A stretch of 64,000 nucleotides of DNA from a virus (Duplodnaviria > Caudoviricetes), in IMG/VR virus record IMGVR_UViG_3300043105_000102, positions 32,001 to 96,000 of that record, one strand, 5' to 3'. How positions within the stretch are numbered: position 1 is the first letter of the stretch; each line of letters opens with the position of its first letter. The notes beneath the pieces are model-generated. The model searched no databases. It had not been told where the DNA came from and saw only the letters and a program-made list of their open reading frames with translations. The position numbers and the translations under genes were made by a program. Positions 14,199 through 53,490 of the stretch are shown here, one piece after another.

Positions 14199-16377
14199 AT
14201 GGCTGATAAAACTCTATATAATGAAAAGAGTATAGAAAGTCTAACTCCATTAGAGTTCACGAGATTGCGCCCAGGAGTATACGCCGGGGATACAACTTAT
14301 TCAACTCAGCTTTTAGTAGAAATCATTTCTAATTCTGTTGATGAATATAGACTAAATCACGGAAATAAGATTGAAGTTACTATTAACGGCGACATTGTTA
14401 AAGTAAGAGATTATGGCCAAGGGTTTATTGCCAACTCTTATAGACCTGATGGAAAGACCATTCTTGAAGCTGCCTTTAGTGTATTAAATACTTCTGGCAA
14501 GTACAGAGATGACGGTACTTACGAAGGAACTTCTCTTGGCTCTTTCGGAATTGGTAGATAAAACTGCCTGTTATACCTTTTCCTGCTTATCACAGGGGTA
14601 TATATACATCTAATAAATAGTATATATGCTAACGGGGAAACCTAAAAATTTTATAAAGTTCATGGTAATCCCGTGGCAAGATTGATAGATAATCAATAAG
14701 CTGTATCGACTATCCTCGGAGCGGAGGAGTAGAACTACTATTGATACGTGGTTCGAAATGGGTATTCTTATTATAAAATATATAATAAGTAAGATATAGT
14801 CAGGTCTTATGGAAACATAAGAATAACCGAGTAAAATTACTACCTTTCTTTCACATTGGCTAACAGTTTCTACTTATAGAGATAGCCAAAGAGAAGAAAT
14901 CCATTTTAAAGAGGGCGTTTTCGACAAGAGATATGATGGAGCGCCCAAGAGCCTCGAGGCTAAGGAAGATGTAGCTAGAGGCGGCACAGAAGTTACGTGG
15001 CAACCTAGCGAGGAGTTCTTTACTCATACGGAAGTAGATATTAGTGCTGTCAAGGATTTGTTTAAAACAATTTCTTGTCTATGCCCCGGATTGACTATTG
15101 AACTTGATTATAACGGCGAGAAAACTACTTATTATTCTCAGAACGGGTTGAATGATTTAGTTGATGGTATCGTCAAAGATAAAGAAGCAATTAGTAATCG
15201 TTTTCAAATGAACTTTGAGAATGGCAAGAATAAGATGGATATGGTAATGACTTATGTATCCAGCTATTCTTCTATAATGATTCCTTATGTAAACACTGGT
15301 TTGACTGAGAAAGGCCCGCACATTACCCAAATTAAGACTCTTCTAACTAGAGAATTTAATAAATTCTTTAGAGAAAAGAATTGGTTGAAAGAGAAAGATG
15401 CCAATCTTAGTGGTGAAGATATTCAAGAAGGATTGTGCGTAGTCTTTAATATTACTGCTTCCAATGTTTCTTATAATGCACAGGTAAAGAGTACTATCAC
15501 GAAAATTGATATGGCCCCCTTTACTACAGCTCTAACCGAAAACCTTCAAGACTGGCTTAAAGTTAATGAGAAGGAAGTTAAGATTATTGCTGATAAGGCC
15601 TTGTCCGCTCGAAAAGCTAGAGAAGCTGCTAAGAAAGCTAGAGAAGCCGCAAGGGCGCCAAAAGAAAAGGGTCTTAAGGCTAAGATGGCGTTAAGCGATA
15701 AGTTCATTGATTGTGTTAGTAAGAGTCCAAAAGAAAGAAAGCTATTCTTGCTTGAGGGACTAAGTGCTGGCGCAGCCGCCGTTGAAGCTAGAAATCCTAA
15801 GACAGACTGTATCTACCTTTTAAGAGGTAAAATTATTAGCCCTCTAAAGAATGATACAACAAAGATTCTTGCAAACCAAGAAATGTCTGACTTGGTAAAG
15901 ATTATTGGCGGTGGCTTTGGAGCCGACTTTGATTTAAGTAAATGCAACTTTGACAAGATTGTAATCTTTAGTGATAGTGATTCAGACGGCGACCAGATTT
16001 GTTTGTTGTTAATGGGATTCTTCTATACTTATATGCGGCCTTTAGTAGAAGCTGGAAAGCTTTATAGAGGAGCCGCCCCTTTGTATACTGTAAAGCAAGG
16101 TAAGGAAGAACGATATTTCTATACTGATAAAGAATATAGAGATTGGTTTTCAACAGCTACTGGGAAGTTTTCTGTGTTGCGCGGCAAGGGTGTTGGAGAG
16201 CTGGAAGCTACAGACCTTCATAGACTTTGTTTTGCCACTGAAAGATTTAAGCGTTTATGTGTTTCTGATTTGGAACAAACTACAAAAATGTTGGACATTT
16301 TCTTGGGTACAGCTGTAGTTCCTAGACGCAATTATATCTATGATAACGCCGAAGATTTAGGGTTTAATATGGAGTGA
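14199..16377 (+). CDS. gyrB: Type IIA topoisomerase B subunit; exons 14199-14555 and 14830-16377 (634 aa)
   Basis: RLRPGVY, EIISNSVDE, DYGQG; splicing restores GSFGIG|SKITTFLS; TOPRIM EGLSA, LRGK, DSDSDG. Confidence 0.9.
14556..14829 (+). mobile_element. Group I intron, ORF-less (274 nt), in gyrB
   Basis: P1 GGU|AG pairs with CUGCC (U-G); GCTAACGGGGAAACC, TCGACTA and AAGATATAGTC core elements; terminal G14829 restores frame. Confidence 0.9.
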
Positions 16378-18755: not shown

Positions 18756-18760
18756 AATTT

Positions 18761-18793
18761 TGGAGAGAGGGATTTTTATCCTTCTCTCCATTT
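18761..18793 (+). terminator. Intrinsic terminator
   Basis: TGGAGAGAGGGAT/ATCCTTCTCTCCA stem. Confidence 0.6.
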
Positions 18794-18820
18794 GACTTTC
18801 GTAAAAAAATATTGTATAAT
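18792..18820 (+). promoter_or_regulatory. Sigma-A-type promoter with no downstream ORF
   Basis: TTGACT-17-TATAAT. Confidence 0.7.
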
Positions 18821-18998: not shown

Positions 18999-19004
18999 CT
19001 TATA

Positions 19005-25587: not shown

Positions 25588-28500
25588 TGCCGTCAAAGTA
25601 TATAGATAATACAGCTATTATTCAAGTAATTGGCTGTACCTTTAGAAACCCAGAACTAACAGAAAAGTATATAATTACCGATGAAGATTTCCCTAATGAG
25701 TTTTATAGAATTGTCTTTGGGGCCATTTATAAAGTCTATAGTCTTGGAGCTGAGAAGATAAGTCTTGAAAATATTTCTGATTTTCTTTCTTCCCGACCCA
25801 AGAGTGAAGCAATCTATAAGAAAGAAAAAGGGGAAGAATGGCTAATGAGAGCCGTTGAAGCTTGCAATCCTCTTTCTTTTGACTATTATTATAAACGATT
25901 AAAGAAAATGAGTTTGTTACGTGCGTTTGATAATTGCGGCGTTGATGTTACAGATATTTACGATCCTGATAATATCTTAGACGCCAAGAAGAAACAATTG
26001 CAAGAAGAAACATTAGATAATTCAACTCTGGAAGAAATAGCCGATAGAGTTAATACTAAGATAGATGATATTCGTATGCAATATGTAGATAATTCCACTA
26101 CCGAAGCCGCCCAAGCAGGAGAAGGAATTTTCGAAATAATTGATAGATTTAAGCAACAACCAGAAGTAGGAGTGCCTTTGTACGGCGGTCTAGTTAATAC
26201 TATTACAAGGGGCGCAAGGCTAAAGAAGTTCTATTTGCGCTCGGCCGCCACGGGAACAGGCAAAGCTATTCCTAACTCAGTTACTATTCCTACTCCTGCG
26301 GGAAACAAGAAAGTAGGAGATATTAAAGTAGGAGATTACCTTTTCGGCCAAGATGGTAAGCCTACTAAAGTCATTGCGGTACATCCGCAACCAGAGCCAA
26401 AAGAAATATGGCGAATTACCTTTAGTGATAATAAAGTCGCTGAATGTTGTAGTGAACACCTTTGGGAAATATACGATAGTAAGACCGAAGGGCCGCAAGT
26501 AAAAACCGTAGATGAAATTTATACAACCATGTGTGACTATATGCACAGGCCTCGCTCTGGCGGAATGTATCAAGTTAAAGTTAGAATTAACAGGCCTGCG
26601 GAATATCCAGCTAAAAAATATAAGTTACCGCCCTATGCAATGGGGGCTTTAGTCAGTCGTATCCAATATAAGTTTAAGAATCAGACAAGACGCTTATATT
26701 TCTGTGCTGAAAATCCAGAAGTAGTTCAAGCTGTTTGTGATTCTCTTGGAGATTATATTTATTCCCCTGCCAAAGATTATCCTGATACTTATATTTTCCG
26801 CAAGAAAACTTACATGGGGCATATAATTGAGTTGGAAGATATTTTTAATAACTATCCAGAACTGCTTCAACTTAATGCCAATAATAGAGTATTGCCGAGT
26901 GAATATTTGTATGGGTCAATCCCGCAGAGAGAAGAATTATTGGCTGGACTCATGGATGCAAGTGGCGAAATTGATAAATTTGGTCGATGCGTTTTTAATA
27001 CTTCAAGTTCTTATTTGAAAGACAATGTAATAGAACTGTGCCGCAGTTTGGGTTATTTGACCTCTTGCGAAGTTGAAACCCATTATGATGGATTTAACAA
27101 ATATTCAGTTATTATTCCAAACGCTCCTTCTGAAATTTTTTCAATTAAAAGTAAGCGTAAAGGATATAAGGAACAAAACGTAGAAGAATTTTCAGTTATC
27201 CGTAGTATTGAAGCTACTGGCAAAATGGCCGAAATGACTTGTTTTACTGTAGATAACGAATCTCATTTGTTCTTAATGAACGATTATATTGTTACTCACA
27301 ATACTCGTTCTATGGTCGGAGACGCTTGTTATATTGGCTGTAATAAGATTTATGATGAAACTTTTGGATGGATTAAGACAGGGGCGGCCCAACCTACTCT
27401 TTTTATTACGACCGAACAGGAATTGGAAGAAATTCAAACAATGATGTTAGCTTTTCTTTCGAATGTTAATGAGACTCATATTTTGAATGGTCAGTATGAA
27501 GAAGGGGAAGAAGAGCGTGTGCTTGAGGCCGCAAGGGTACTAAAGTCTAGTCCTCTATATATAGAAGATCTACCAGATTTTTCATTACAAGACGTTGAAA
27601 ACACAATTAAGAAAAATATAAGAGAACATGATGTAAAATATGTGTTCGACTCTATTGAAAGAGTGTCGGGACAATGAAACACTTTTCCACTAATCAGTGG
27701 GGTTATACAATAATTTGTATAGCTAACGGGGAATCCTAAACCTTTTTGGCATGGAAATCCCGTGGCAAACCTTTATTCTTTATGTTTTCCTTTAAGAAAA
27801 AGATAATTAAAACTTACAGAATTATAAAGAATAATTGAAGCTGTATCGACTATTTCCTAGGCCTTATGGGCAGGAAAGTACCAGTACTATTGATACGTAC
27901 TCTGATTTTAGGAAACGAAGTCAGTTAAATGGGGAAAAGGTGTCCTTATTATTTTATAGTAAGTAAAAGATAGTCAGCGCTTATGGAAACATAAGAAAAT
28001 CGTGCCACGATTATATTCACACAAGTCTAAAGATTCTTGAAGAAATCACTAGACGCAGCGGTGGAATTAAATTACGAGAAGATAATGTTCTATTTATGTT
28101 ATCTACTAAATTGAAAGATATTTGTAATCAATATGGCGTTTTTATTTTGTCAGCAACTCAGTTAAATTCTGGGTATGTAGATTCTGAAACACCAGACCAA
28201 AATTTGTTAAGAGGTATGTAACAGTGCCTTAATATATCTTATCCAGCTCATCACTGGGGTTCTACTTCCTTTTGGAGTAGAGCTAACGGGGGAACCTAAG
28301 TTAAAGCAATAATATGGTAATCCCGTCTCAGCTTAATAAATAAGTGGGGCTATCGACTATCCCTTATGTTGAAATGCAGGGGAGTAGGGCTACTATTGAT
28401 ACGTAGCTAGATTTTAGGAAACGAAGTCTATGAAAACCGAAAGAGATATAACTATTAGTATAGTTAAAATATAGTCAGTACCAATAGAAATATTGGAGTT

Positions 28501-28792
28501 TACGGCAAAATCTATAGCAGATAAAATTGACGTAGGCAGTATTATTCTACAAGTTGATTCAAAGGATTTAGAAGCCCTTGAGCCTATCCTATCTAGTAAT
28601 ATTTTTGAACCACCAACTTTAAAGATTTCCTTTTATAAGAACCGCCGAGGTCAATATAAAGGAGTCTATTTATGGTGTAAAGCCAATTTAGGATGTTGTA
28701 GAATCCAGCCAATGTTCTGTACTACTTTTGATTACGAGATTATTAATTTGGATAGTACCAGAATTATTGTCAATGAGAAAAGCGCTTTTTAA
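25587..28792 (+). CDS. dnaB: DnaB-like replicative helicase; exons 25587-27646, 28005-28215, 28505-28792; 852-aa precursor, 506 aa after intein removal
   Basis: Walker A TGTGK|T split by the intein; spliced KYVF|HDYIH (Walker B), ATQLN, LLRG|AKSIADKID, KNRRG. Confidence 0.9.
26265..27302 (+). mobile_element. Class 3 intein (346 aa) with LAGLIDADG-type domain in the DnaB P-loop
   Basis: Starts with Ala (K|AIPNS), ends VTHN|T; WCT signature SEHLW, TCFTV, VTHN; LAGLMDASG motif. Confidence 0.9.
27647..28004 (+). mobile_element. Group I intron, ORF-less (358 nt), dnaB-I1
   Basis: U|CGAC pairs with GUCGG; core motifs present; terminal G28004; TT|C restores Phe. Confidence 0.88.
28216..28504 (+). 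mobile_element. Group I intron, ORF-less (289 nt), dnaB-I2
   Basis: AGGU pairs with GCCU; AAATATAGTC; terminal G28504. Confidence 0.9.
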
Positions 28793-33860: not shown

Positions 33861-35382
33861 TTCTTACTAATAAGCAAGAAGAAGGTTTGAAGATTATTGT
33901 AGCCAGATACAAAGCAGGAGAAAAATATACTGTTGTATCTGGCTACGCTTAAAAGCTGGTGTCGGTAAAAGCGTTTTAGTTAGATTTGCTGTTGAAGCTT
34001 TGGGGGTGCCAGAAGATACAGTAGCTTATGCTACATATACGGGCAAGGCCGCCGAAGTTTTACGCAAAAAGGGTAATAAGGGGGCTATCACACTTCATAA
34101 GCTTCTATATAACTGCTATCCTCGTAAAGATGGCGGATTTTATAGAGAACCTAAAAAATATTTGGACTATAAAGTTGTTGTTGCTGACGAGTGTAGTATG
34201 ATCCCTAAGACTATGGTAGACCTTCTTTTGAAGCATAATGTTTATGTATTATTCTTAGGTGACCCGTTTTAAAGCACTGGGACGGGCTAAAATAATCTAA
34301 TTGCGGGAACCTCCTGAGAGTTCACTCTACTAACTTATTATAGTGATATGAATAAGGGCAAAGGGTAATGCCGGAGATTTAAGTAAAAACGAGTGAAATT
34401 GGACAATCCGCAGCTAAGTTTCTAAAAGGTTTTAGAAAAAAGTTCAACGACTATCGAAAAGTATTTAATTACTGAGTAGAGTACACTGCAAGTTTATGGC
34501 AGTGGAAATGGTTATCCTAGAAGATATAGTCTGCTCTCACGAGAAATTGTGAGCTTGGATATTCCAAGAGATAAGGTTTGCGCCCTTATCTAAACAGGGA
34601 GGCAGCTCCCACCAATAAATAAAGATGAAGCAAATGACCTTCTAGAGCATCCTCATATCTTTCTTGATGAAGTATTGCGCCAAGCTGCTGACTCAGAAAT
34701 TATTCGAATGACTATGAAAATCCGTAACAATGAGCCTATTCCTTATTTCAAAGGAACTGATGTTATGGTAATTCCAAAAGCAGAGTTAGTAAACTCTTGT
34801 TATACTTGGGCCGATCAAGTATTGGTCGCCACGAATAGGACTAGAAAATCTATCAACACTCAAGTTAGAAAGATGAAGGGACTCAGTGGGTTGCCGCAAG
34901 ATGGAGACAAGATTATCTGTTTGTCAAACTATTGGGACGATATTTCTATGACCGGAGATGCCCTAGTAAATGGCACTACTGGAACTGTACGCAACCCGGT
35001 AGGAAGAGTAAAGAAGGTTCCTTATTTCTTTAATATTCCCGAAAATTCCATTCATAGCATCCAATTCGACTTTGAAACAGAAGAAGGCTCTTGTTTCAGT
35101 GGCATTGAAATGGATGAAAAATTAATTCAAACTGGAAGAAAGGCTGTTGAAGATTATAGTGTTGCTTATCGTTTGAAAAGCTACGAAAAGAAAACCGGAG
35201 AAGAGTTTATTCCCAAAGAGTTTGACTATGGGTATGCTATTACGACTCATAAAGCCCAAGGTAGTTCTTGGCCAAAAGTACTAGTAATAGAAGAGCATTT
35301 TCCAACTATTCAAGAGGAACACGCCCGCCATTTGTATACTAGCTGTACAAGAGCTTCTTCTCGGTTAGTTTTGGTACGTTAA
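33857..35382 (+). CDS. Dda/RecD-like SF1B helicase; segments 33857-33949, 33958-34269, 34603-35382 (394 aa if the 8-nt gap is skipped and the intron spliced)
   Basis: AGGAGG RBS plus TTG; LT.KQ, GYA[8 nt]GVGKS, TGKAA, TLHKLLY, DECSM, GDPF|QLPP, RQ, YAITTHKAQGS, YT..TRA. Confidence 0.85.
34270..34602 (+). mobile_element. Group I intron, ORF-less (333 nt), in the Dda-like helicase (boundaries could both shift 1 nt left)
   Basis: CCCGUUU pairs with GGACGGG; AATTGCGGGAA, AATCCGCAGC, TTCAACGACTA, AAGATATAGTC; terminal G. Confidence 0.9.
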
Positions 35383-35993: not shown

Positions 35994-38900
35994 ATGAAGA
36001 TACGAAACTACCCCGGTAGCCTTCATAATCACTAGATACTGATTATAGTAATTTGCGACTTCGTGACTCTATTAACCGATATGATAAGCTTATTGATTAT
36101 GCTATTGAGTTAGGCCACGAAGTTATTGCTTTTACAGAGCATGAATCAGTTTCTAATGCGGTAAAAATCCAAAAGTATTACAAGAAGATTAAGTCCGACC
36201 ATCCCGATTTTAAAGTAATTCTGGGTAATGAGATTTATCTATGCCGAAATGGATTAAATAATGAAAATTTTGTTTCGGGAGAAGATAGATATTGGCACTT
36301 TATACTTTTGGCGAAAGATGCTATTGGCCATCAGCAAATAAGAGAAATTTCTACTAGAGCGTGGAAGCGTTCCTATAAGGCTAGGGGAATGCGGCGAGTC
36401 CCCACTTATTATCAAGATCTTGAAGAAATAATTGGGGCTAATCCCGGCCATGTTATTGGGTCTAGTAGTTGCCTTGGCGGCTATTTACCTTTTTTAATTC
36501 TTAAATATAGAGATAGCAGCAGCGACCAACTCTTATGGCTAGAAAGAATTAACCAATGGACTAATAGTATAGAACAGATTTTCGGAAAAGGAAACTTCTT
36601 TTTAGAGCTTCAGCCCTCAGAATCAAAGGAACAAACTTATGTAAATGAGTTTTTGGTTTCTTTTTCCTCTCAGGCAAATATTCCATATATTATCACAACG
36701 GATTGAAAAATAATGCTTATGAAGATTATTAAAGGAATAGAAGGAGGTGAAAAAATGCGTAGTTTAAAGTCTTTTTCGGCAGAAGAAAAACAGCAAATTT
36801 TGAACGATAAAAGAGAAAACCCATTCAAAAGATATTAGATAAAATCTATAGTAACGTACCCTTTTTTGCTTAAAGCGAAAATACATAAGCATTATAAATG
36901 ACAGTCGAGTTAAGCTGTGAAGCTTAATGTTAATCCCCGCTAACCCAGATTGCAATGGGGTGTGAGCCAATGGCTTGCTAACGGTTGAACTCCTGCAAAG
37001 GACAATCCCGTGCTAAATTACTGTAAAGTATAAATGTGTAACGACTAGTTCGGAGGAACGTAGAATGGAGATGCTACCATTCGAAAGACGGGGCATCTGT
37101 TTGAAGCAGCAGATGAAAATATAGTCTATTCTTTATAGCAATATAAAGTATTAAAGAGTCATTATGCTAGAAGGGAAGATAGACCAATTCATAAGGCCTA
37201 TTTGAATGCAGAAGATGGCGATAGAGAAGTTGATTCTTTTTATGCAACGACTTATATGATGGATACAGAGGAACTAGAGAGCCATTTAAGCTTAACAGAC
37301 GAACAACTAGAAATAGCTTATCAGAATATTAGGAAAATAAAAGAAATGTGTTCTGATTATAGCCTGTTAAAGCCTTTGAAGATTCCTGAGTTAGTTTGGA
37401 AAGAGCCATCTTATTTAATTAGTCCAAGCACTTATTATAAACAGATTCCTTATCTTCAAACCTTTGTTGAATCAGAGTATCGTGGAGATAATCTATTGGC
37501 ACAACATGTTGCAGATAGATTATCTTGGGATACAACACTTCAAAATCAAAAAACTTATGATGCACTAGATGAATGTTTAGAGATGACTTGGAAATCATCT
37601 TTAGTCAATAAAACACATTGGAGTGCCTACTATTTAAATCTACAAAAAATAATTGATATTGTCTGGGATGCTGGAAGTCTGGTGGGGCCATCAAGAGGTT
37701 CTGGTACTGGGTTAGTAACTAAGCTCAGTTAAAAATTCGTGAACTATATTGCTCATAGGTGTCTAGTATAATTACTAGGCTAACGGTTCAGAAAGCAGTA
37801 ATGTTATTATGAGTAAGGGAACCTAAGTCTTTAACAAAGATAAGGAAATACCGTGTCAAGTTTGCTGATTATATTAAGCAAAAAGATGTAGAGACTATCG
37901 AAAGGTGTAATAGCTGAGTAGAGTAAAGTGGAAGATGAGCTACCACTTGAAGCGCGAATTACTTATATATTAAGTAAAGAGATAGTCCATGCTATATAGA
38001 AATATATAGTGTTCAGTTGTCTTACTATATGTATTGAATATTATACAGATAAACGCATTGCGTGAAACTACCAAGACAAAAAGTTGGAGATTTCTTAATC
38101 CTAGTCGAGTATCAGTTTTGGATATTGATGTAGATATAGAAGGCTCAAAGCGTGAAAAAGTTTTACAAGCTCTAAGAGATAATTATGGAGAAGATTATGT
38201 AGCTAACGTTATTACTTTTGGCGTTGAAAAGTCCAAATCAGCTATCCTTACTGGTGCAAGAGGACTAGGCATGGACAATAATGACGCACAGTATTTTTCT
38301 TCTTTAATTCCTTCTGACAGAGGTATCACTAGAACTTTACACCAATGTTATTATGGAGATAAAGAAAATGGTTTTGCGCCCATACCTCTATTTGTCAAGG
38401 AAATGGACGAACATCCAGACTTATGGAACGTGGCGCAAAAGATTGAAGGATTGATTTGCCAGATGGGTATTCACGCTGGGGGAGTTATTTTCGTAGATGA
38501 ACCTTTTACCAACTCCACTGGCTTAATGCGGGCGACAGATGGTACAATTATAACAGCTTATGACCTCCATGATTCAGAAGATGTGAGTCAACGAAAGTTA
38601 AGGCTCCTAAATGCTTAATCACTTATCAGTGATGTTATATAGGCTCTTAGAAATAAGGTAAGTAAAAAATACCTATATGGCACCGGGGAAACCTAAGTCA
38701 AAAATGATATGGCAATCCCGGACTAAATTGGGTAGCTTCCAGCTATCCATAAATGTCTATCGACTATCCCTCGGAAGGGGAGTAGAATTACTATTGATAC
38801 GTAATTCAAAACAGCATTCTCTTTAAAAGAGTAAGATATAGTCAGTACCATTGGAAACAATGGAACAATACGCTTATCAAGTACGACCTATTATCGGTTG

Positions 38901-41900
38901 AAGGATTTGATAAAATCCATACTTGCTTAGATTTGCTTTGTGATAATGGATTGGTTGAAAGAAAGCCCACATTAAGAGAAACATATGAATCAACTATTGG
39001 CATTTACAATCTTGAAAGAAAAGATCCTAGAATGTGGAAAATGATTTGGAATCATGAGATCGAATCATTATTCCAAATGGAAAAACAGAGTGGTGTTCAA
39101 GGAATTGCTTTAACAAAGCCTCAAAGTGTAGACGATTTAGCCCACTTAAATTCAGTAATCCGGCTAGTAGCACAAGATAAGGGCGCTGAACAACCACTAA
39201 GTAAATTTGCTCGTTTTAAAAACGATATTACCTTATGGTATAAGGAAATGGAAGATGCCGGATTGACCCAAAAGGAACAAGACCTTTTAAAAGAATATCT
39301 CTCAGGGTCATATGGTATTTGCGAAGCACAAGAACTATTTATGGAGTTAGTTCAAATTCCTGAATGTGGCGGATTTGACTTAAACTGGGCCGACAGGCTA
39401 AGAAAGAGTATTGCTAAGAAAAATCCAGCCGAATTTGAACAATTAACAAAGGAATATTATGCACAAGTTGAAGCCAAAGGACTAAGCCAAAATTTATGTA
39501 AATACGTATGGCAAAATTTGGTCGGGATAAGCCGTGGGTAAAAATTTGCTCCCTGTAATAGAAATATTACTTGAACAATGCCGAGAATTGCTGGAAAGCT
39601 AAGTCGAAAGATATGCCAATCAGCAGCCGAGCCATTTAGCTAATGGAAGGTTCAACGACTATTCAGAAAGAAGTAGGAGAAATCCGAAGTACGGCACATC
39701 GTTATTCTACCATGATTTTAGATTAAAGGAGGTGTAAAAATGGATCAACAACAGATAATTGATTGGTATGTTAAAGATGGATTTTCAATAAATTATATTG
39801 CAAAAAATCTACTACATTGCCGTGCAAGTACTATTAGTAAAATTTTAAAAGAAAATAATATAGTCATTAAAAAAGGCGCTACTAAAAAAGTAAATATTAA
39901 TCAAGAGAAAGAAATTATTGAACTATATACTAAAGAACATTATACGCAAAAAGAATTAGCCGAAAAGTTCCATCGTAGTACTGATACAATTCATAAAATT
40001 CTTATTAAAAATAGTGTAGCTATTATTAGTCAACCCAAGATTAACAAAAATCAAATAGACACTTATTTTGATATAATAGATACAGAAGAAAAAGCATATT
40101 GGCTTGGATTTATTTTCGCTGATGGTAATATTTTTAACAATCAATTAACAATAGAAATTCATGAGCGGGATAGGGAGTTGCTAGAAAGATTTAAAATAGC
40201 GCTAAATTTAAACGGAAAAATTTCTCATAGAGTCAGAAAAAATACTTCTGTATGTTCTGTCAGAGTTGTAAGTAAACATCTATGTGAAACTTTGAGTAAG
40301 TACGGAATAGTACCTAACAAAACTTATGTTACTAAACATTTACCACAAGTTCCTGAAACAATGTTACCACATTTCTTACGAGGATTAATTGATGGTGATG
40401 GTTGGATTAGTACAGACAAATCTGGACATTATCATATTGGGTTTGTTAGTCACTTCCCTTCAGTGTGTGAAGATTTTAAAAGGTATTGCAATATATTAAC
40501 CGATGGAAAATGTAGAGCTGCAATTACACGCAAAGATAAAAATTATTCTGGATATTGTTTTCAAATTCAGAGCAAAGAAGCTACAAAATTGATAGCTACA
40601 ATTTTGTATAAAGACAATACAATTTGTCTTAGTCGAAAGTATCGGAGGGTAGAGCCGTTACTTGACTGAAAAAACGATGAAGATATAGTCTTGGGCGATA
40701 ACCAGTTATGAAAATAACATTCGCTCAGACGGCTTTAATTTGAGTCATACATTAGCATATTCCCTTGTGGCACTCCAAGAGATGAACTTAGCATTTAAGT
40801 ACCCTATTGTTTATTGGAACTGCGCTTGCTTGATAGTTGATAGCGGTAGCGTTGGTTCTGGAACAGATTATAATAAGATAGCTATAGCTATTGGTAAGAT
40901 GCGGAAAGCCAACATTAAAGTTAGTTTGCCTGATATAAACCAATCAGACTTTGGATTCAAACCCGATGAAAAGAATAATAGAATCCTGTGCGGACTTAAG
41001 AGTCTGGCAAATGTTGGCGATGAAGTAGTCATAAAAACTATTGACAACCGTCCTTATGTATCTCCAAAAGACTATTTGGATAAAGTTCATCCTAATAAGC
41101 AAGCTATGATTTCCTTGATTAAAGGAGGGGCTTTTGATTCTCTTATGGATAGAAAGCTTTGCATGGCTTGGTATATTTGGGAAACTTGTAATAAAAAGAG
41201 TAAAATTAACCTACAGAATATGTCGGGATTGATTAGATACAATCTTCTTCCCGAAGAAACAGAAGAACAAGTCATGGCGCGCCGAGTTTATGAGTTTAAT
41301 AGATATTTGAAAAGTAGCTTTAAGCAAGGTGACAAATATATATTAACCAATCGGGCTATTAGCTTTTTGAACGAACTGGGCATAGAACCAAGTTTTGATT
41401 CTGGACTTTATTTACCGATTAAAAAATGGGAAAAGGTCTATCAAAAATGGATGGACGTATTTAGAGAGTGGATGGCCGCCAACCACGATAAAATACTCCA
41501 AAAAGTAAATGATAATGTTTTCCGTGAAGATTGGGAGAAGTATGCTCTTGGTAATTATTCTAGTTGGGAAATGCAATCTTTGTGTTTCTATTATCATGAA
41601 CACGAACTCGCCCATGTTAATAATAATCTTTATGGCTTCGCTGACTTCTCTAAGCTTCCAGAAGAACCAGAAATTGTAAAGACCTTTGGGAGCGGTGGAA
41701 AAATTTTCCAGTTGCATACGATTTGCGGCACTTGTATTGCAAAAGACAAAAACAAGAGTACTGTTAGCTTATTAACTACAACCGGAGTAGTTAATATTAA
41801 GTTCAGAAAAGAATACTTCTCTATTTTTGATAAACGTATCTCAGAAATTGGCGCCGATGGTACTAAACATTGTATTGAAGAATCTTGGTTTAGTAGAGGT

Positions 41901-42924: not shown

Positions 42925-45900
42925 ATGAATATATTGAAAAGAAACGGCGCAGAAGTCCCTTTCGATGGGCAGAAAATTCAGAATGCAATTATTAAAGCTA
43001 TGGCCGAAGTTGGCGGCGGCCAAGATACAACAATTGCAGGAGACATAGCCGCCAAAGTTGAAGCTGACATCACTAAGAGTCCAGAAAAAGCAAATGTTGA
43101 ATCTATTCAAGATTTAGTAGAGGATTATTTGATGCAATCTGGGCGGAGAGATGTTGCTAGAACTTATATTAGATACAGATATAAAAAAGAAAATGAACGA
43201 GCTTTACAAGAAGATTTAAATCTTCGTTTTAGAAAGTTCAATGCTTTAATTTCCGGTGAGGATGAAGAATCTAAAAAGGAGAACAGCAATAAAGATACTC
43301 GTATTATCCCTACTATGAGAGACTATATTGCGGGCTTCTCTTGCCGAGATATAGCAAAGAACTATTTTTCAAAAGAGATTTGGGATGCTCATGAAGCTGG
43401 AATTATCCATATTCATGATACCGATTATAGTCCGGCTATGCCGATGTATAACTGCTGTTTAATCAATCTTGAAGATATGCTTCAAAATGGTACGGTTATT
43501 AGTAAGACTATGATTGAAAAGCCTAAATCTTTTAGGACTGCTTGTACTGTAACTACTCAAATTATTACCCAAGTAGCAAGTAGTCAATACGGTGGAAATA
43601 CGATAAATCTTGCACACTTAGCGCCTTTTGTTGATATTTCAAGACAAAAGATTCGTGAAAAAGTGAAAAATGAAATCATCGAAACTGAGGGAAACCTAGA
43701 TAAGATAGATGAAATTACTGAAAAACAAGTCCTTGAGGAAATTAAGGATGGAATACAAACTATTCAGTATCAGCTTATTACAATGAGTACAACTAATGGT
43801 TAAAAAATGGCCACGCTAAGATGGGGACATCTTAGAGGAGTAGACGGCTAACCTACAAATGTAGGGTGTCTAGATATTTCCTATTTAGGCTAACGGTGAA
43901 CACTAAAATATTTTTAATTTAAGATATAAATATTCTAAGGTAAAGGAGGGGGAAATTTGATAATATATAAAATAACTAATGATTTTAACAATAAAGTCTA
44001 CATTGGGCAGACTATATATAACGATCTTAAAAAGCGAATTAAAACTTATAAAAGTGAAATTCAATTTAGAGATGGTACAAGGCCAATCATTCAAGAGATA
44101 AGGAAACATGGTATAGACCATTTCACTTGGGAAGTTCTTGAAAAAGATATTAATAGTCAACAAGAGCTGGATGAAAAAGAAATTGCCTATATTAAAGAAT
44201 ATAAAAGTTTAACATCTCAAAATGGGTATAATGCAGATGTTGGTGGAAGAGGACAAGGGCCTCGTTCTGAAGAAACAAAAAAGAAAATAGGAGATGCACA
44301 ACGAGGGAAATTAAACCATATGTACGGAAAAACCGGAGCAAAAAATGCTACTTCTAAGAAAGTCATGGAATTAACAACCGGAAAAACCTATGAATCAGCT
44401 TGCGAAGCAGCAAGAGATCTTGGAATCAATTTTTCTCATATTTGTGCCACAGCTAGAGGCAAAAGAGGCAGTACAAAAGGATATGTTTTCTTATATGTTG
44501 ATGAAAATGGTCATTTAATTATACCAAATAGAATGACTAAAATTAAAAATCCCTCTTTAAGAAAAAAGCTTCATAATTTATACCCGAATCTATTTTAAAT
44601 TAAAATATCATGTCAATACCGTGCCAAGCTTCTACCTATGTAAGAAGAAGGTGTAACGACTATCCCTTATTGGGAGTAGGATTAAGGTGGAAGCCCTTAA
44701 CCCGAAAGACCGTCCATCTAGAACAGATGAAAAGATAGTCTAAGCTATTTAGAAATAAATAGAGGGGTCTGCAAGCCCCATTTACGTCAATTTTTATGTG
44801 GATTGACTCTGATTACGATAAACAATTACAACACGATTTAGCTCTTGTTATTAAAGAAGTTTTAAAACAGCGCATAGAGGGAGTAAAGAATGAAAAAGGT
44901 GTACCTATTACTACAGCTTTTCCCAAATTACTTTATTGCCTTGACGAGAATAATATTCATGAAGACTCTGAATATTGGTACTTAACAGAACTGGCCGCAG
45001 AATGTAGTGCAAAGCGTTTAGTACCAGATTATATCTCAGCTAAGAAAATGCGTGAACTTAAGAATGGAAACGTATTCGGCTGCATAAACAATAACTGTGC
45101 CTAATGATAGCGATATTATTAGAAAACTTGTCTAAACGGAGAAAGTCTTTTAACTAAGATAACTTACCGTGCTAAAAAGAAAGCCTAACGACTATCCCCG
45201 AAGGGGGAGTAGAATACAAGCTGTTGGTATTCGAAATGGCAAGCTTCTCAATAAAAAGAGAAGGTGATATAGTCTAATCTGCATATATAATCCATAAAAT
45301 GCAGCAGTTCATAAGAGAACGTAATAGATGTAGCGAATCTATTGGAATGTTAATGGGGATGCCGAAGTTTCCTTCAAGATTATATTGACCCAGAAACTGG
45401 AAAACATAAATTCTGGGGTCGATTCAACCAAGGGGTCTGTACTTTAAATCTTGCCGATGTAGCTCTATCTTCTGGTGGAGATTTTGACAAATTTTGGAAA
45501 ATTATGGATGAAAGGCTCCAAATGTGTTATGAAGTTTTAATGGTTCGTCATAACGTATTAAAAGGTACCAAGTCTGATGTGGCGCCAATCCTTTGGCAGC
45601 ATGGTGCTTTAGCAAGACTTGCTCCCGGAGAAACCATTGATAAGTTGCTTTATAACGATTATAGTTCTATTTCATTAGGATATGCTGGACTGTATGAATG
45701 TATCCATTATATGACTGGTGGTTCCCAACTAGATGAAAAAGGATATAATTTTGGTATGGAAGTTATGAAGTGCCTTAAAAGTGCTACCGATAAGTGGAGA
45801 GAAAAAACCAATATTGGGTTCTCCCTTTATGGCTCTCCCATTGAAACAACCACTCAAAAATTCGGTAAAGGCCTTAAAAAGAGATTTGGAATTATTAAAG

Positions 45901-47306
45901 GGATTACTGACAAGAACTACGTCACTAACTCCTATCATATTACGCCCTCTCAGCATATTGACGCCTTTAACAAGCTGAGAATTGAATCTAGGTTCCAAGA
46001 ACTTAGTTTGGGTGGTTAGCCTAAATAGCTACCCTGAAATTATGTGAACGCAAGAAAAAGCGGTGTTTAACCTTATGGTTAAGCTAACGGGGAACACTTA
46101 ATTGGAAATCCCGTGCCAAGCCTTATCTTATAAGGAAGGTGTACAGACTATCCCGCAAGGGAGTAGGACGGATTTTATCACCGTTCGAAGTGCATAAAAA
46201 GTGAAGCAGAGGGTACCTGCTACTTTAAGATATAGTCGAAAGGAAAATAATATGTATAAATGTGAAATTTGTGGTAAAGAAAGTTTTAAGAAAATACGAT
46301 TAGGTGGATATACACTTTGTAGTAAGCATATGCACCAGCTCCATTCTTATGGTAAATTTTTAGACGATAACCCAAGAACTCAAAATGATTTAAACGAGTA
46401 TAAAGTTGTTGGCGATATAGCTATTTTTAATTTATACGATGGAACCACTTCTGAGAAAATTGACGAATTTATTATTGACTCAGAAGATGTTGAAAAAGTT
46501 AAATATCATAAATGGAGACTTAGTCATAGTCATGTTGTAACGGGATTACCTTACAAAGGAACTCAAAGAGAACTAAGCTGGGTTATTTTAGGATTGGACA
46601 ATAGATTAAAAGAGAATGAGAATAAAGTTGTAGACCATATTGATTGCGACCCTAGAAATAATCGTAAATCTAATTTAAGGATTTGCTCACAAGCAGAAAA
46701 CGTAAGAAATAAAAGCTTTGTAAGTAACAATTCCTCTGATTTTATTGGGGTTAGCTATAGCAAAAAGAAAGATAGATATGACCCAGAAATTAGAATAAAT
46801 AAGCAGAGGTGCCATTTAGGGTATACAAAGACTTTAGAAGAAGCTGTATATAAGCGTCTAATAGCAGAAGAATTACTATTTGATGGCTTTAACAATGAAG
46901 CTGAATCTAATAGAAAAAGAGAATTTACCAAAAGTCTTCCACAAGAAGTAAAACAAGAACTTTACCAAACCACAATAAACAAATTAAAAGCTAAAAACCT
47001 TTGGCAATAAGCTACATTGAAACCCCAAATATGACAAAAAATATTCCAGCGGTTTTGGAAGTTATTAAATTTATATACGATAATATTATGTACGCTGAAA
47101 TCAATACTATGACAAGTTATTGCCATATATGCGGTTGTACAGATATTAAAATGGGTGATGATTTGAAATTCCATTGTCCAGAATGCGGCAATGATGATTT
47201 TGAGAAAATGAATATTGCTTTACGTGTCTGTGGGTACATAAGTACGAATCCCTTCTGTGAAGGACGTGCCGAAGACATCTATGCAAGGGTCGATCATTTT
47301 GATTAA
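42925..47306 (+). CDS. nrdD: Anaerobic (class III) ribonucleotide reductase; exons 42925-43800, 44772-45085, 45356-46016, 47004-47306 (717 aa)
   Basis: ATP cone, ENSN, HIHD, NCC, QYGG, TNG|QAPF, FPK, GC-M|GCRS, GRFN.G, GG|AISY, CxxC..CxxC, glycyl-radical motif RVCGYI. Confidence 0.95.
43801..44771 (+). mobile_element. Group I intron (971 nt), nrdD-I1, encoding a GIY-YIG endonuclease
   Basis: UGGU pairs with GCCA; TAACGACTA, AAAGATAGTC; terminal G44771. Confidence 0.92.
43957..44598 (+). CDS. Intron-encoded GIY-YIG homing endonuclease with NUMOD3/NUMOD1-like DNA-binding modules
   Basis: IIYKITN...YIGQT, E..YI, GYN, SEETKKKI, N.MYGK, YES..EAAR.LG. Confidence 0.9.
   Translation: MIIYKITNDFNNKVYIGQTIYNDLKKRIKTYKSEIQFRDGTRPIIQEIRKHGIDHFTWEVLEKDINSQQELDEKEIAYIKEYKSLTSQNGYNADVGGRGQGPRSEETKKKIGDAQRGKLNHMYGKTGAKNATSKKVMELTTGKTYESACEAARDLGINFSHICATARGKRGSTKGYVFLYVDENGHLIIPNRMTKIKNPSLRKKLHNLYPNLF
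45086..45355 (+). mobile_element. Group I intron, ORF-less (270 nt), nrdD-I2
   Basis: GCAU pairs with GUGC; TAACGACTA, GATATAGTC; AT|G restores Met in CMGCRS. Confidence 0.9.
46017..47003 (+). mobile_element. Group I intron (987 nt), nrdD-I3, encoding an HNH-AP2 endonuclease
   Basis: GGUGGU pairs with GCUACC; CAGACTA, AAGATATAGTC; terminal G47003. Confidence 0.9.
46252..47010 (+). CDS. Intron-encoded HNH endonuclease with AP2-like domain
   Basis: VDHID.DP.NNRKSNLR.C...EN; GVSY...HLG...EEA; stop codon lies in the downstream nrdD exon. Confidence 0.88.
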   Translation: MYKCEICGKESFKKIRLGGYTLCSKHMHQLHSYGKFLDDNPRTQNDLNEYKVVGDIAIFNLYDGTTSEKIDEFIIDSEDVEKVKYHKWRLSHSHVVTGLPYKGTQRELSWVILGLDNRLKENENKVVDHIDCDPRNNRKSNLRICSQAENVRNKSFVSNNSSDFIGVSYSKKKDRYDPEIRINKQRCHLGYTKTLEEAVYKRLIAEELLFDGFNNEAESNRKREFTKSLPQEVKQELYQTTINKLKAKNLWQ

Positions 47307-49190: not shown

Positions 49191-49200
49191 GGTTTTTAAA

Positions 49201-49449: not shown

Positions 49450-49454
49450 TATAA

Positions 49455-50238
49455 ATGGCAAAGTTCGAAAAGATTTCTAAATACGAAAATATCAATATCA
49501 ATCTCCCAGTGCGCAAAACTGCTGATTCCGCAGGCTATGATTTTGAAGTGGCCGAAGATACTCTAGTACTTCCTTATGATGAACTTGGACTTGATTTACT
49601 TAGTGAATATGTCGGGCCAGAAGGAAGTAGAGAACTTGAACCTCTTACTTTGGAAGAAACTGCGGCCTTAACTAAGAAAGCAGAGTCTAAACCTACTTTA
49701 GTTCCTACTGGAATTAAATGCCAACTAGACCCCGGAACTTATTTAGAGTTAAGTGTGCGCAGCTCTTGCCCCCTTAAATATTGGCTTATTTTAGCTAATG
49801 GAGTCGGTAGAATAATGCCGACTATAAATTGAGTAAAATCGGTGAAACCCTCCAATAGATAGGGCAATACCGAGGTAAACTTCTAAATTACGAAAGGTTA
49901 GAAGTCACCGTAGAGCGTAGGCAATGAATAAATATAATTTGCCCAAGAGTACTCAACAATATAATTGAAAATGTACGCCGAACTTATACGATGGTAAAGT
50001 ATAAGAACTAGAGGATAAAAAGCCTCTAGGGTAACAAATGGTTATTGACAGAGATTACTATAATAATAGCGACAATGAGGGGCATATCTTTTTCCAGATT
50101 ATAAACTTATCGCCATTCCCCATTATTCTTAAAAAGGGCGATATAATTGGCCAAGGCATTATTAAGTCATATTTAAAAGTTGAAAATGATGATGCTGCTG
50201 GAGAGCGCACCGGCGGCTTTGGTAGTACTTCTAAGTGA
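49455..50238 (+). CDS. dut: Trimeric dUTPase; exons 49455-49808 and 50041-50238 (183 aa)
   Basis: SAGYD, PTG, RSS, NGVG|VIDRDY, IGQG, RTGGFGST. Confidence 0.92.
49809..50040 (+). mobile_element. Group I intron, ORF-less (232 nt), in dut
   Basis: AGUCGGU pairs with GCCGACU; AAATCGGTGAAAC, AATACCGAG; variant P7 GAGCGTA/GTACGCC; terminal G50040. Confidence 0.88.
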
Positions 50239-50720: not shown

Positions 50721-50723
50721 AAA

Positions 50724-50762
50724 CAAAAAAAAAGAGGGTTAGGAATTTCTTCCTAACCCTCT
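50724..50762 (-). terminator. Terminator at the convergence of the two arms
   Basis: AGAGGGTTAGGAA/TTCCTAACCCTCT stem with an A-run on its left. Confidence 0.75.
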
Positions 50763-50767
50763 AAAAT

Positions 50768-51223
50768 TTACACAGCAACTTTAGTCGCCAAAACGGCGAG
50801 CTTCTTTTGCATTAACTGTTTTTCTTCGATACTGGCTTCTTTGGCCATATCTAAAATTTCTTCGCTAAGTTCATGAATGTAGCCCTCAAGATGTTCCATT
50901 TGAGTTTCTTTATCCATATGATGCTCTCTGGCTTTCATATATTCGTGTTTATGCTCCTCTAAAGGAGTGGGCGAATAGTCAAAGTGAGTATCTTCTGGCA
51001 TCCCTTTTCTCTCAAGAATACGAATAAGCTCTCTTTCTTCATCTTCTTGAGTCTCTTTATGTTCCATTGCTTCTACTACAGAATGATAATACATAGCTTC
51101 GTTTAAGTCTTTAATCATGTCAATAACTTCGCCCAATTCGTGCGCATCAACGCATTCTAAATTGGACATTTGATTTTCGACTTGCTGAACAAGATGTTCT
51201 TTAATAGTTTTTAATCTGTACAA
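50768..51223 (-). CDS. Cassette gene E: helical Glu/His-rich hypothetical protein
   Basis: ELGEVIDMIKDL.EA.YY motif; TTG start. Confidence 0.7.
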   Translation of the reverse strand: MYRLKTIKEHLVQQVENQMSNLECVDAHELGEVIDMIKDLNEAMYYHSVVEAMEHKETQEDEERELIRILERKGMPEDTHFDYSPTPLEEHKHEYMKAREHHMDKETQMEHLEGYIHELSEEILDMAKEASIEEKQLMQKKLAVLATKVAV

Positions 51224-51224
51224 T

Positions 51225-51674
51225 TTAAGCCACCCTCTCTATAATAATATTAGCGTTTTGAACATTTACAGAAGTAGTTCCAACATTTTTAACGCTTATT
51301 TGAGAGCAGCAATTACTCGGCACATCCAAGAAAATACTTGTAAATACACAATTGTAATCTCCTGTTGCTCCGGGAGTTGAAATCATTTTTGTTGTGAGAA
51401 TAGGTTCTCCATCCAAGGAAATTGCTAAAGCTACTGGGGCCGGAGTTGTAGTGGCGGCTTCTGATGCGCCAGTAGTAGAACTGGGTGAAGCAATATTTGC
51501 GCCAAAAGTAACTCTAAATCTGGCGCGGCATTGCTGAGTTATTCCTCTCAGAATTACTAAACCGCTACCCTCTCTATTATAGATTATTGAGCAGTTTCCC
51601 GGAATAGCAACTTCAGAAAAGAGAACATTCTGATTAGCACTTACTAATTGAACTGCATTTGCTGTTAGTTCCAT
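51225..51674 (-). CDS. Cassette gene D: beta-sandwich protein resembling BclA C-terminal/C1q-TNF-like domains
   Basis: Q.V..NQNVLF, F.VTF.ANI, LAI..DGE, ISV.N...NAN..IERV; fold is inferred. Confidence 0.6.
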   Translation of the reverse strand: MELTANAVQLVSANQNVLFSEVAIPGNCSIIYNREGSGLVILRGITQQCRARFRVTFGANIASPSSTTGASEAATTTPAPVALAISLDGEPILTTKMISTPGATGDYNCVFTSIFLDVPSNCCSQISVKNVGTTSVNVQNANIIIERVA

Positions 51675-51694
51675 ATCTCTTTACCTCCCAACTA

Positions 51695-53490
51695 TTATCC
51701 GTTGCACCCAAAAGATAGAGGATAACCAGTATAAGGATTGGCTACGGGGTATGCAGGAACGGGGCAGGGCTTAAGCTCATTCACCAGATAAGCATTCTGA
51801 GCTTGCTGAGAAATCTGGAAATTAGCAGTCTGCAATTGACTATCCTTGGCGGCCAGACGATCACGCAAGTCTTGCATTGTGTTAGCATTGATTAAAGCTC
51901 TAGTTTGTTCGGCTTCATTGTGAATAGCGGCAGTAATATCGCAAGTATTACGGTAATTCTCTGCTCTAACGCTATCTATATTGCGGTTTGTGTCACCAAT
52001 TTGTTATCTTATAGGCTCTTTATCCTATAACTCATATAGTTTCCTATATGTTCAGACTATATCTTCTTCCCTAATTATTATTAGGGAGTTCGGCACTCGT
52101 GTTGGTATTATTGTTTGTCATAACTCAACCATTAGTCGTTGAACCTTCTAATTACTTTTACTGACTTTCATTAGCTTGGCTGCTGATTAGCATACTTACA
52201 AATGTAAACTTAGCTTTCCAGCAATTCACCGAATTATTTTTCTAATAGTTACCTATTAGGCTGCCATGATTGTTTAGCAGCAAGACTGCATCGCATAACG
52301 GCTATCCGCAATATTAGAGTTTACAGTATCGAAGCCTTGAGAGACAGCACTAAATCCTGTGCATAAATCACGCTGTAAACTGCCAAAGTTGTTCAGGAGA
52401 GTAGTGTTGTTGGAATAAAATCCATCACACAAACCTTGCTGAATGCCACGAACGCCATTTTCAACTTGCTGGAAGTTCATGTCTTGGCAAAGCTCTCCTC
52501 TGGTCAGGGCGCCTTGAGTTGAAGCATTGTTATTGCCCCAACCATTTCCTCCCCATCCGCCGCCCATAAAGACGAACAGGAAAAGTATAATTATCCCATT
52601 GCTGTTATCCTACTGGCTTTTTGTCCAGTAGCTCTTATAGTTTATAGTTCCTATAAGTTCAGCGCACCTTTTCTACTCCAATATTAGAGTAGTCGCGGCC
52701 TCTTGGAAAAACTAAATAGTTCTGAGTTATTAAAAAACTCTGCTTTATATCTATTGCAGAAATGAAAAAGTATAATTATGTACTTTACTGCGGCTGCTGT
52801 TTAAAACTCTAGTAATAGCACGTTTGTTAATGTTTAAAAGCGCACTAGCTTCAGAAGTACTCATAAAAACAAATTTTTCACCTGTAGTTAAATTTGTTGC
52901 TAAAATCGGTTTACTCTTTATCTGGTCTTTTTCTTTTGTCCATTCAAGATTTTCGACTTTATTGTTAAGTGGATTTCCATCTTTGTGCTTAACATAAGGG
53001 AGAATATTTGGATTATCAAGAAAATATAAGGCCACAAGTCGATGGATTCTAAAAGTCTTTTTAAGCCCATCTTGGCAAAAGGTATACGTTAAATAACCTT
53101 CGTTGTTCATGTGCGGTTCCAAAATTTTCCCATTTTTAACATTTTTGATATTACCACAGTTTGAAACAGCATAATTATTGAACGCATCAATAATTATATA
53201 CTTTTCCATTTCGTATACTCCTTTAATTGACTTTATATAGTAGTCTTAAAGGACTACAACATATTCAGTATGTCTGCGCGTTGCCCCTGACTGTAGTTCT
53301 TACAGCCTTCGGTTCTGATTCCCATCTCAGGGTTCCAGCTTAATTCCGCGATTATTCGATACAAGTTACCTTGTAAAGTGGCAAATATTTATACTTACCA
53401 AGCTCCCATGCCATCGCCAAATCCCTCACGATTGGCACCAGAAGCAGTTGCAATGTCGGCTAAAGAATAGCCACTGTTTTGATTGAACAT
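51695..53490 (-). CDS. Cassette gene C: membrane-segment/coiled-coil Cys-Cys-Cys protein; exons 53490-53397, 52596-52276, 51996-51695 (238 aa)
   Basis: AAGGAGG RBS; splicing gives GMGAW|WIIILFLFVF-GGGWGG and MQSCC|CDTNRNID; C-terminal PCPVPAYPVANPY. Confidence 0.85.
51997..52275 (-). mobile_element. Group I intron, ORF-less (279 nt), gene C-I2
   Basis: GCUGCU pairs with GGCAGC; minus-strand AATTGCTGGAA, AATCAGCAGCC, TTCAACGACTA, AAGATATAGTC; T|GT restores Cys. Confidence 0.9.
52597..53396 (-). mobile_element. Group I intron (800 nt), gene C-I1, with an HNH gene
   Basis: UGGU pairs with GCCA; AATTAAGCTGGAACCC, AATCAGAACC, CAACGCGCA/AAGGTGCGCT; T|GG restores Trp. Confidence 0.85.
52751..53209 (-). 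CDS. Intron-encoded NUMOD4-HNH endonuclease (possibly degenerate)
   Basis: Y.VSN.G, GYL, IHRLVA..F, HKDGN..NN...NLEW, F.S..EA...L. Confidence 0.85.
   Translation of the reverse strand: MEKYIIIDAFNNYAVSNCGNIKNVKNGKILEPHMNNEGYLTYTFCQDGLKKTFRIHRLVALYFLDNPNILPYVKHKDGNPLNNKVENLEWTKEKDQIKSKPILATNLTTGEKFVFMSTSEASALLNINKRAITRVLNSSRSKVHNYTFSFLQ

Follow-up and report, generated by a model that had tools for sequence, protein, structure and literature searches.

Fourteen predicted group I introns in seven genes of a gut phage with an SPbeta-like replication module

The 64,000-nt stretch of phage DNA analysed here (the window) comprises bases 32001–96000 of a 155,944-bp virus record, IMGVR_UViG_3300043105_000102, which has direct terminal repeats and is rated complete. 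A sequence-only reading of the window had proposed fourteen group I introns in seven genes between positions 14556 and 53396, about 7.0 kb in all, and this was borne out with coordinates essentially as implied. The gyrB, Dda/RecD-like helicase and dut genes are interrupted once each, dnaB and cassette gene C twice, nrdD three times and dnaE four times; the summed length is 7,023 nt, and the two ends of the region fall precisely on the bases at which the first and the last intron begin. The interruptions have the predicted features of group I introns with a subgroup IA-like architecture, and we consider them most probably to be selfish homing elements (probability about 0.85). The exact junctions, ribozyme families and endonuclease cargo could be mapped for all fourteen, and the whole genome holds at least 18 such introns; the phage is a notable and well-resolved example of an extreme intron load, and not a new mechanism.

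Gene structure and splice junctions

When read from stop to stop, all seven genes are in pieces, and the pieces are colinear with uninterrupted homologues. Pfam coordinates run continuously across the dnaE exons (DNA_pol3_alpha 30–70, then 71–257) and across those of nrdD (NRDD 1–154, 153–251, 263–470 and 471–562). SPbeta YorL is colinear with the five dnaE pieces (residues 8–238, 239–434, 439–630, 625–835 and 846–1302), and an Enterocloster-phage NrdD corresponds to four exactly abutting nrdD pieces (10–296, 297–398, 399–631 and 632–710). Likewise, the dnaB pieces are colinear with YorI, the helicase pieces with an Enterococcus-phage RecD-like helicase, and those of gene C with uninterrupted gene C homologues. 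Gene callers can be expected to shatter these genes, so that annotations of such phages would miss the replisome unless the introns are modelled.

Intron boundaries were defined by listing all position pairs that keep the frame open and put a U at the end of the exon and a G at the end of the intron, the choice among them being made by homologue length. The resulting junctions were checked against the uninterrupted genes of related IMG/VR contigs, including 12 related dnaE loci. The 5′ exon ends in U and the intron in G in every case (14/14), with an in-frame stop 1–11 codons past the 5′ splice site, and a GGT glycine codon directly precedes eight of the introns. All seven spliced coding sequences are open and in frame, with one terminal stop, and the fourteen junction peptides align without gaps with intron-less genes of relatives, several at 63–81% identity. 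The terminal G, the early stop and the exact restoration of frame and motif described in the sequence-only reading were thus all recovered, as was the location of the enzyme-gene introns at conserved motifs, from GIG^S in gyrB to NGVG^VIDRDY in dut (Table 1). For gene C intron 1, a start at 53399 (803 nt) was rejected, since a U-G P1 helix (UGGU^AAG over UUUGCCA) is obtained only with 53396, which also fits GAWW in related locus L028.

The DnaB protein additionally carries an intein, a fifteenth selfish insertion among the interrupted genes. The alignment with SPbeta YorI stops at GTGK and restarts at TRSMV on either side of it; its first residue is Ala, it ends in HN^T, and it is absent from that site in relatives of the G002 group.

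It is exceedingly improbable that the interruptions are an artefact of assembly, that is, a chimeric contig of intron-plus and intron-minus variants or a product of misjoined repeats. The genome does come from a metagenome assembly, but the introns are not repeats of one another (similarity of at most ~80% over short pieces), every insertion restores the frame exactly, and orthologous introns occupy the same sites on independent contigs from other samples.

Table 1. Predicted introns and the DnaB intein, in window coordinates. A caret marks the junction; ORF, open reading frame; RF00028, Rfam group I intron model; L numbers denote related loci.
Feature	Coordinates	Strand	Length	Site	ORF and other features	RF00028	Junction gapless against
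gyrB intron	14556–14829	+	274 nt	GIG^SKITTFLS, ATP-lid region	no ORF; IA-like	44.2 bits, E 3e-11	L023/L024
DnaB intein	26265–27302	+	~346 aa	Walker A, GTGK^...HN^T	LAGLIDADG-type homing endonuclease domain; Pfam Hom_end, Hom_end_hint		
dnaB intron 1	27647–28004	+	358 nt	Walker B, KYVF^HDYIH	no ORF	17.3 bits	L016
dnaB intron 2	28216–28504	+	289 nt	LLRG^AKSIADKID	no ORF; P1 GAGGU^AU over GUGCCUU	29.0 bits, E 2.9e-5 (local)	L016/L020
Dda/RecD-like helicase intron	34270–34602	+	333 nt	GDPF^QLPP	no ORF; 9-bp P1 with U-G	67.1 bits	L016, L011
dnaE intron 1	36704–37156	+	453 nt	PHP motif, TTD^SHY		44.2 bits over 36884–37148	12 relatives
dnaE intron 2	37713–38016	+	304 nt	SRGSGTG^FVLLY	no ORF	31.7 bits	
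dnaE intron 3	38589–38872	+	284 nt	SEDVS^LIKYDLL	no ORF	45.8 bits	
dnaE intron 4	39540–40728	+	1189 nt	ISRG^YGFNLSH	LAGLIDADG ORF 39740–40669	42 bits (5′ part), 15.9 bits (3′ part)	
nrdD intron 1	43801–44771	+	971 nt	TTNG^QAPF	GIY-YIG/NUMOD3 ORF 43957–44598 in P5 loop	no match	L016, 79% identity
nrdD intron 2	45086–45355	+	270 nt	C^MGCRS, Met codon split AT^G	no ORF	33.9 bits, E 4e-8	L016, L003
nrdD intron 3	46017–47003	+	987 nt	SLGG^AISY	HNH ORF 46201–47010; 9-bp P1	22.1 bits, E 9e-4 (local)	L016, 81%
dut intron	49809–50040	+	232 nt	NGVG^VIDRDY	no ORF; compact, no P2	14.8 bits	
gene C intron 2	52275–51997	−	279 nt	QSCC^CDTNRN	no ORF; P1 GCUGCU^A over UGGCAGC	93.4 bits, E 1e-22	L007, L026, L027
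gene C intron 1	53396–52597	−	800 nt	GAW^WIIIL	HNH/NUMOD ORF 53209–52751 between P7.2 and P3′	no match	

Ribozyme cores and endonuclease genes

The introns were screened with RF00028 at its gathering threshold, in a whole-genome search and then in local searches. Just two of the fourteen, gene C intron 2 and the helicase intron, were found at the gathering score, so the default Rfam threshold badly undercounts these introns. The whole-genome search added six (dnaE3, gyrB, dnaE1, dnaE4, nrdD2 and dnaE2, the numeral giving the order within the gene) at 31.7–45.8 bits (E 1e-11 to 2e-7), and for these eight introns, with whole-genome E-values of 5.6e-26 to 1.7e-7, the match to the core is beyond chance. 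Four more (dnaB2, nrdD3, dnaB1 and dut) gave weak local matches, and the cores of the remaining two were read by hand, gene C intron 1 helix by helix and nrdD1 by eye.

A P1 helix of 5–9 bp with a U-G pair, as had been claimed, can be drawn for all fourteen introns, and the G of the guide sequence lies 8–14 nt into the intron in nine of them; these helices are supportive in aggregate only. An automatic P1 search returned implausibly distant guide sequences for gyrB, dnaE1, dnaE2 and dnaE3, for which nearer helices, found by eye or by folding, were preferred.

By sequence, the introns fall into three or four families. One comprises those of gyrB, dnaB1, dnaB2 and dnaE3, with common P4/P4′ (ACGGGG and CCCGU), P7 arms GACUA and UAGUC and a GAAA-capped P9; dnaB1 aligns with the other three through P4, P7, P7.1, P7.2 and P9. 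RNAalifold, applied to these four introns (family alignment of 405–475 columns), recovered P2, P4–P5, P7, P7.1, P7.2, P8 and P9, and 18 of the 43 predicted pairs are changed on both sides; with so small a sample, the compensatory changes are indicative and not statistical proof. The two hairpins P7.1 and P7.2 directly follow GACUA in all four introns; both are also found in gene C intron 1, and one such hairpin in the dut intron. This mark, seen in the introns examined, points to a subgroup IA-like architecture.

A second family consists of the dut intron and gene C intron 1, with P7 arms GCGUA/UACGC and GCGCA/UGCGC, respectively. Scripted helix checks showed the dut intron to be fully paired (P1, P3–P7, P7.1, P8, P9 and P9.1) and gene C intron 1 to be paired in P1–P7.2, P9 and P9.1. 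The 3′ arms of P7 and P8 in gene C intron 1 were taken from reading the sequence and not from the script, in which the P8 arm had been mis-specified. Comparison of this intron with its ORF-less orthologue (L027, from relative G001; P7 GCAUA/UAUGC) revealed compensatory changes in P1, P2, P6, P7, P9 and P9.1. The 3′ end (P9, P9.1 and a GAUAACA..G tail) is common to the dut intron and both gene C introns.

In the dnaE1 intron, the P1 loop is enlarged by an insert of 164 nt with a 27-codon mini-ORF inside, and the minimum-energy fold of this intron gives a P1 of GAU^UG over CAGUC, with U-G at the splice site and a 12-bp extension. For nrdD1, P4 arms ACGGUG (5′) and UACCGU (3′) flank the GIY-YIG ORF, with P7 arms GACUA and UAGUC. 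The entire core of nrdD3 lies within the first ~230 nt, and the HNH ORF occupies the 3′ tail, a layout that presumably resembles that of T4 sunY.

Some of the inserts with weak scores or no match (dnaB1, dut, nrdD1, nrdD3, gene C intron 1) might instead be decayed ribozymes that have lost self-splicing and either depend on a protein or RNA acting in trans or mark dead genes. Their RF00028 scores of 15–22 bits or lack of a match would fit such decay, as would the ~770 nt between P7 and the 3′ splice site of nrdD3 and the additional stop-containing micro-inserts near the 5′ ends of two of the seven genes, the helicase gene and dnaE. However, the helices of the dut intron are all intact, and the intron is 82% conserved in L016; gene C intron 1 keeps all but P8, with compensatory changes; dnaB1 has every core helix of the well-scoring gyrB and dnaE3 introns; and the exons are open and 63–81% identical to those of relatives. 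Decay is accordingly unlikely, and all fourteen interruptions are interpreted here as group I introns on the basis of their predicted cores and boundaries.

Pfam identified homing endonuclease genes in four introns: LAGLIDADG_3 in dnaE4 (E 6.5e-11), GIY-YIG with NUMOD3 in nrdD1, HNH_3 in nrdD3 and, in gene C intron 1, HNH_3 together with NUMOD4 and NUMOD1. No endonuclease gene is present in the remaining ten. The HNH ORF of nrdD3 (+ strand) crosses the 3′ splice site (47003^47004), its stop falling 7 nt inside nrdD exon 4, so that the endonuclease frame overlaps the splice site. A megablast search against phage records gave no nucleotide-level match except for 49 nt of intron core (window 39585–39633, + strand) in the P4–P6 region of dnaE4, 96% identical to the polymerase introns in the DNA polymerase I genes of E. 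coli phages KBNP1711, LAMP and Bas89. One intron core may thus be widespread among very distant phages.

Intron occupancy among relatives and mode of spread

The relatives of this phage come from human gut samples. Each of the fourteen sites is empty in at least one of them, and several are also occupied: the first dnaB site (L020/L021), the second (L011–13, L016), third (L014, L016) and fourth (L015) dnaE sites, the dut site (L016) and the first gene C site (L027). Conversely, introns of similar families are found in relatives at further sites, unoccupied in this phage (dnaE aa 436, nrdD aa 420 and 558, and gyrB aa 573).

Comparison of orthologous introns shows endonuclease genes in different states. 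At the dnaE2 site, the orthologues in L016 and L011–13 are 86–91% identical to the intron of this phage on both sides of a 1.1-kb insert, which holds a GIY-YIG gene that is intact in L016 but truncated in L011 (NUMOD3 alone left); for dnaE2 and dnaE3 together, identity to the insert-bearing orthologues is 86–93% on both flanks of an insert of ~1 kb. The dnaE3 orthologue carries an intact GIY-YIG gene in L014 and is ORF-less in L016, where it is 88% identical over all 284 nt. The fourth dnaE site holds a GIY-YIG intron in L015 and a LAGLIDADG intron in this phage. In L020/L021 the dnaB1 site is also occupied by an orthologous intron with an insert, the longest ORF found there being 91 aa with a GIY-YIG-like motif by eye. 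The dut intron is 82% identical in L016, and dut is intron-less in L011, L012 and L020. The homing cycle can thus be read within one polymerase gene, whose sites among relatives are empty, or filled by an ORF-less intron or by one with an intact, decayed or other-family endonuclease gene.

RF00028 matches at E ≤ 0.001 number 12 in this genome, nine in relative G001 (156 kb) and seven in G003 (136 kb, 79% complete), and none in G002 (145 kb, 100% complete). The gyrB, dnaB and gene C genes of G002 are uninterrupted, and its dnaE runs without interruption through all four sites at which this phage has introns, apart from a single break of 180 nt near aa 870; G002 is apparently intron-free. Homing elements that go through cycles of invasion, decay of the endonuclease gene and loss leave such a pattern, which shows that the lineage can do without the introns.

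We infer homing as the mode of spread, because at identical sites the same introns are found in several states, their endonuclease gene being present, absent, decayed or of another kind, and because occupancy is polymorphic site by site and includes an apparently intron-free complete relative. Guanosine-initiated self-splicing, with the U-G pair of P1 at the 5′ site and the terminal G at the 3′ site, would remove each intron from the mRNA before the protein is made. In mixed infections, the endonucleases would cleave alleles that lack the intron, at sites coding for conserved motifs, and the intron would be copied in as the break is repaired; the endonuclease genes would later decay and then be lost, leaving ORF-less ribozymes such as the ten seen here. 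Bias to the conserved motifs of essential genes is expected of homing endonucleases, and conservation of homing sites would lead to introns at catalytic motifs, as found here.

Several observations weigh against the selfish-homing interpretation. The ten introns without an endonuclease gene cannot now home by themselves. Introns within the genome are ~70–80% alike over short core pieces, so that recent intragenomic spread is not visible; it was rejected as an explanation, with identity of at most ~80% over such pieces and no copies elsewhere in the genome. As regards the ribozymes, all four local RF00028 matches lie below 30 bits, the two cores split by ORFs (nrdD1 and gene C intron 1) gave no match in any search, and several of the P1 helices are short and, taken singly, no better than shuffled controls. 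Furthermore, self-splicing is a prediction from sequence, and the genome is a metagenome assembly.

It had also been suggested that nearly the whole replisome and the supply of deoxynucleoside triphosphates (dNTPs) depend on splicing. This stands for much of the replisome and dNTP genes, splicing itself being presumed from the gene structure. A further proposal was that the introns are kept as a coordinated checkpoint, with GTP/Mg- and translation-dependent splicing gating gyrase, helicases, polymerase, reductase and dUTPase together and tying them to host state. Six of the seven interrupted genes do act in replication or in the supply of dNTPs, and introns also split terL and a tRNA-Leu gene; gene C, however, does not belong to the replication genes. 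No riboswitch family or sensing element was found beside any intron in a permissive Rfam scan of 13000–55000, site-by-site occupancy differs among close relatives, one complete relative has no detectable intron, and the pattern of endonuclease gain, decay and swap fits parasites. Moreover, the bias to conserved motifs is already expected from homing-site conservation, as is generally known. We therefore regard the checkpoint as quite improbable. Nor is the idea new: sensor or ‘on-switch’ roles of phage introns have been discussed as an open and unproven hypothesis (PMC11878797).

A broader proposition, which we hold to be doubtful, is that the gut phages of this Firmicute-infecting clade can withstand, and perhaps turn to use, a replisome nearly saturated with group I introns. 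Possible uses would be a shared splicing gate on replication or, more plausibly, a weapon of intron plus endonuclease that converts or excludes co-infecting relatives. If it is true, this phage, with at least 18 introns in 156 kb including that of tRNA-Leu(UAA), would be among the most intron-dense phage genomes described.

Genome-wide load, known systems and stop-led micro-inserts

Outside the window, the terL gene (L008 4658–7670, − strand; genome ~144.7–147.7 kb) has three exons and two introns, the TerL of G002 mapping to three pieces. Its first intron is ~260 nt (RF00028 47 bits); the second, ~0.9 kb, holds an HNH/NUMOD ORF in frame with the nuclease exon, giving one 545-codon open frame. 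The gene upstream (L008 7643–9978, − strand; genome ~147.6–150.0 kb) is probably split by one intron, with a double-HNH/NUMOD4 ORF (L008 8232–9167) between RF00028 partial matches at genome 149066–149203 and 148127–148249; exon homology to its G002 counterpart is weak.

A tRNA-Leu(UAA) gene (L009 8295–9340; genome 26295–27340, also outside the window) is interrupted by a group I intron of 926 nt (L009 8330–9255), which lies between U34 and A35 and has an HNH ORF (8470–9147) and an RF00028 match. The joined halves form a canonical 85-nt class II tRNA-Leu, and the position is what we take to be the classic cyanobacterial and plastid tRNA-Leu intron site. From the window set, the two terL introns, the probable one upstream and that of tRNA-Leu, it follows that the genome holds at least 18 group I introns, ~10 kb or 6–7% of its length.

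The replication module is SPbeta-like, with YorL-type DnaE, YorI DnaB and YorK RecJ homologues, and NrdD and gene C are nearest to those of unannotated human-faecal phage contigs, Clostridioides phages and Enterocloster phages. Bacillus phage SPbeta has the closest named replisome (YorL 33–43% identical per exon, plus YorI and YorK), but its yorL and yorI are uninterrupted, unlike dnaE and dnaB here. The known introns and intein of SPbeta lie in class Ib reductase genes.

Phage T4 (td, nrdB and nrdD/sunY with I-TevII) likewise has nucleotide-metabolism genes with group IA introns, of which some encode GIY-YIG endonucleases, although only three in three genes as against fourteen in seven in this window. 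T4 also has an nrdD intron; identity of its site with that of nrdD intron 1 was considered and rejected, the T4 site lying ~10 codons upstream. In the Herelleviridae (Twort orf142 with three introns; Bastillevirinae), a gene can similarly have several IA-type introns; their cargo is HNH, GIY-YIG and LAGLIDADG, the ORF-less ones measure ~250–350 nt, and occupancy among relatives is uneven.

The sequence-only reading had called the load exceptional. It is indeed far above the three introns of T4, and well-studied intron-rich phages reach a maximum of ~6. The Bastillevirinae survey (NAR 2025, PMC11878797) gives 45 introns over all genomes with a maximum of six per genome, confined to PolA, terL, nrd and thymidylate synthase genes, and a literature total of slightly more than 100 phage introns; at least 18 are present in this genome, four of them in a DnaE-type polymerase gene. 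The gyrB, dnaB, dnaE, Dda-like helicase and dut genes are not named as phage intron hosts in the passages of that survey and of the review literature that were consulted, and lie off the usual host list. A paper on a group I intron database (PMC11835236) held no phage-specific information.

The claim must be qualified, however, in view of crAss-like Zeta genomes of the human gut, in which up to 14 introns and three inteins have been described (Yutin et al., 2021; PMC7886860), and of the nine and seven RF00028 matches in relatives of this phage. The load equals or slightly exceeds the published maximum, but in another lineage and in other target genes; the phenomenon itself is known, and the ‘massive infestation’ of crAss-like Zeta phages is also found in an unrelated, SPbeta-like gut lineage. 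Those phages have PolA or PolB and Bacteroidetes hosts, whereas the DnaE replisome here is SPbeta-like and the nearest named relatives infect Clostridia and Bacillus, the host of this phage probably being a member of the Clostridia. Their named targets are core genes such as that of the major capsid protein (MCP), with MCP, PolB and primase genes in Delta-group relatives. Their introns were inferred mainly from endonuclease domains, whereas ribozyme cores and exact junctions are defined here and ten of the introns are ORF-less. Whether the crAss-like load is adaptive or runaway parasitism was left open (PMC7886860).

Two of the intron-rich genes contain further, much smaller interruptions. Within the Walker A region of the helicase gene (window 33947–33960, + strand), the frame is broken by a GCT codon followed by TAA and then AA GCT GGT, and skipping 8 nt yields SGYAGVGKS. 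Stop-initiated micro-inserts follow the same Ala codon in relatives, namely 8 nt, TGAAATCC, in L016 (~5800–5850) and an in-frame 6 nt, TGAACT, in L011 (~6090–6125) and L020 (~6510–6545); their removal restores GYAG(V/T)GKS in every case. The matched landing codon seen here is not kept in these relatives. Retention of the insert at one codon across genes only 46–64% identical argues for some form of recoding or bypass, and not for an assembly error or a dead gene.

A second family of such stop-led micro-inserts is found in the PHP motif of dnaE (window 36030–36036, + strand), where MKIRNYPGSLHNH is followed by TAG and then a frame shift, and removal of 5 nt gives LHNHTDYS. In relatives, these three codons also contain TAG-initiated inserts, of 4 nt in L011/L012, 11 nt in L016 and 8 nt in L022, and PGSLHNHT is unbroken in the dnaE of L014, L017, L018 and L020.

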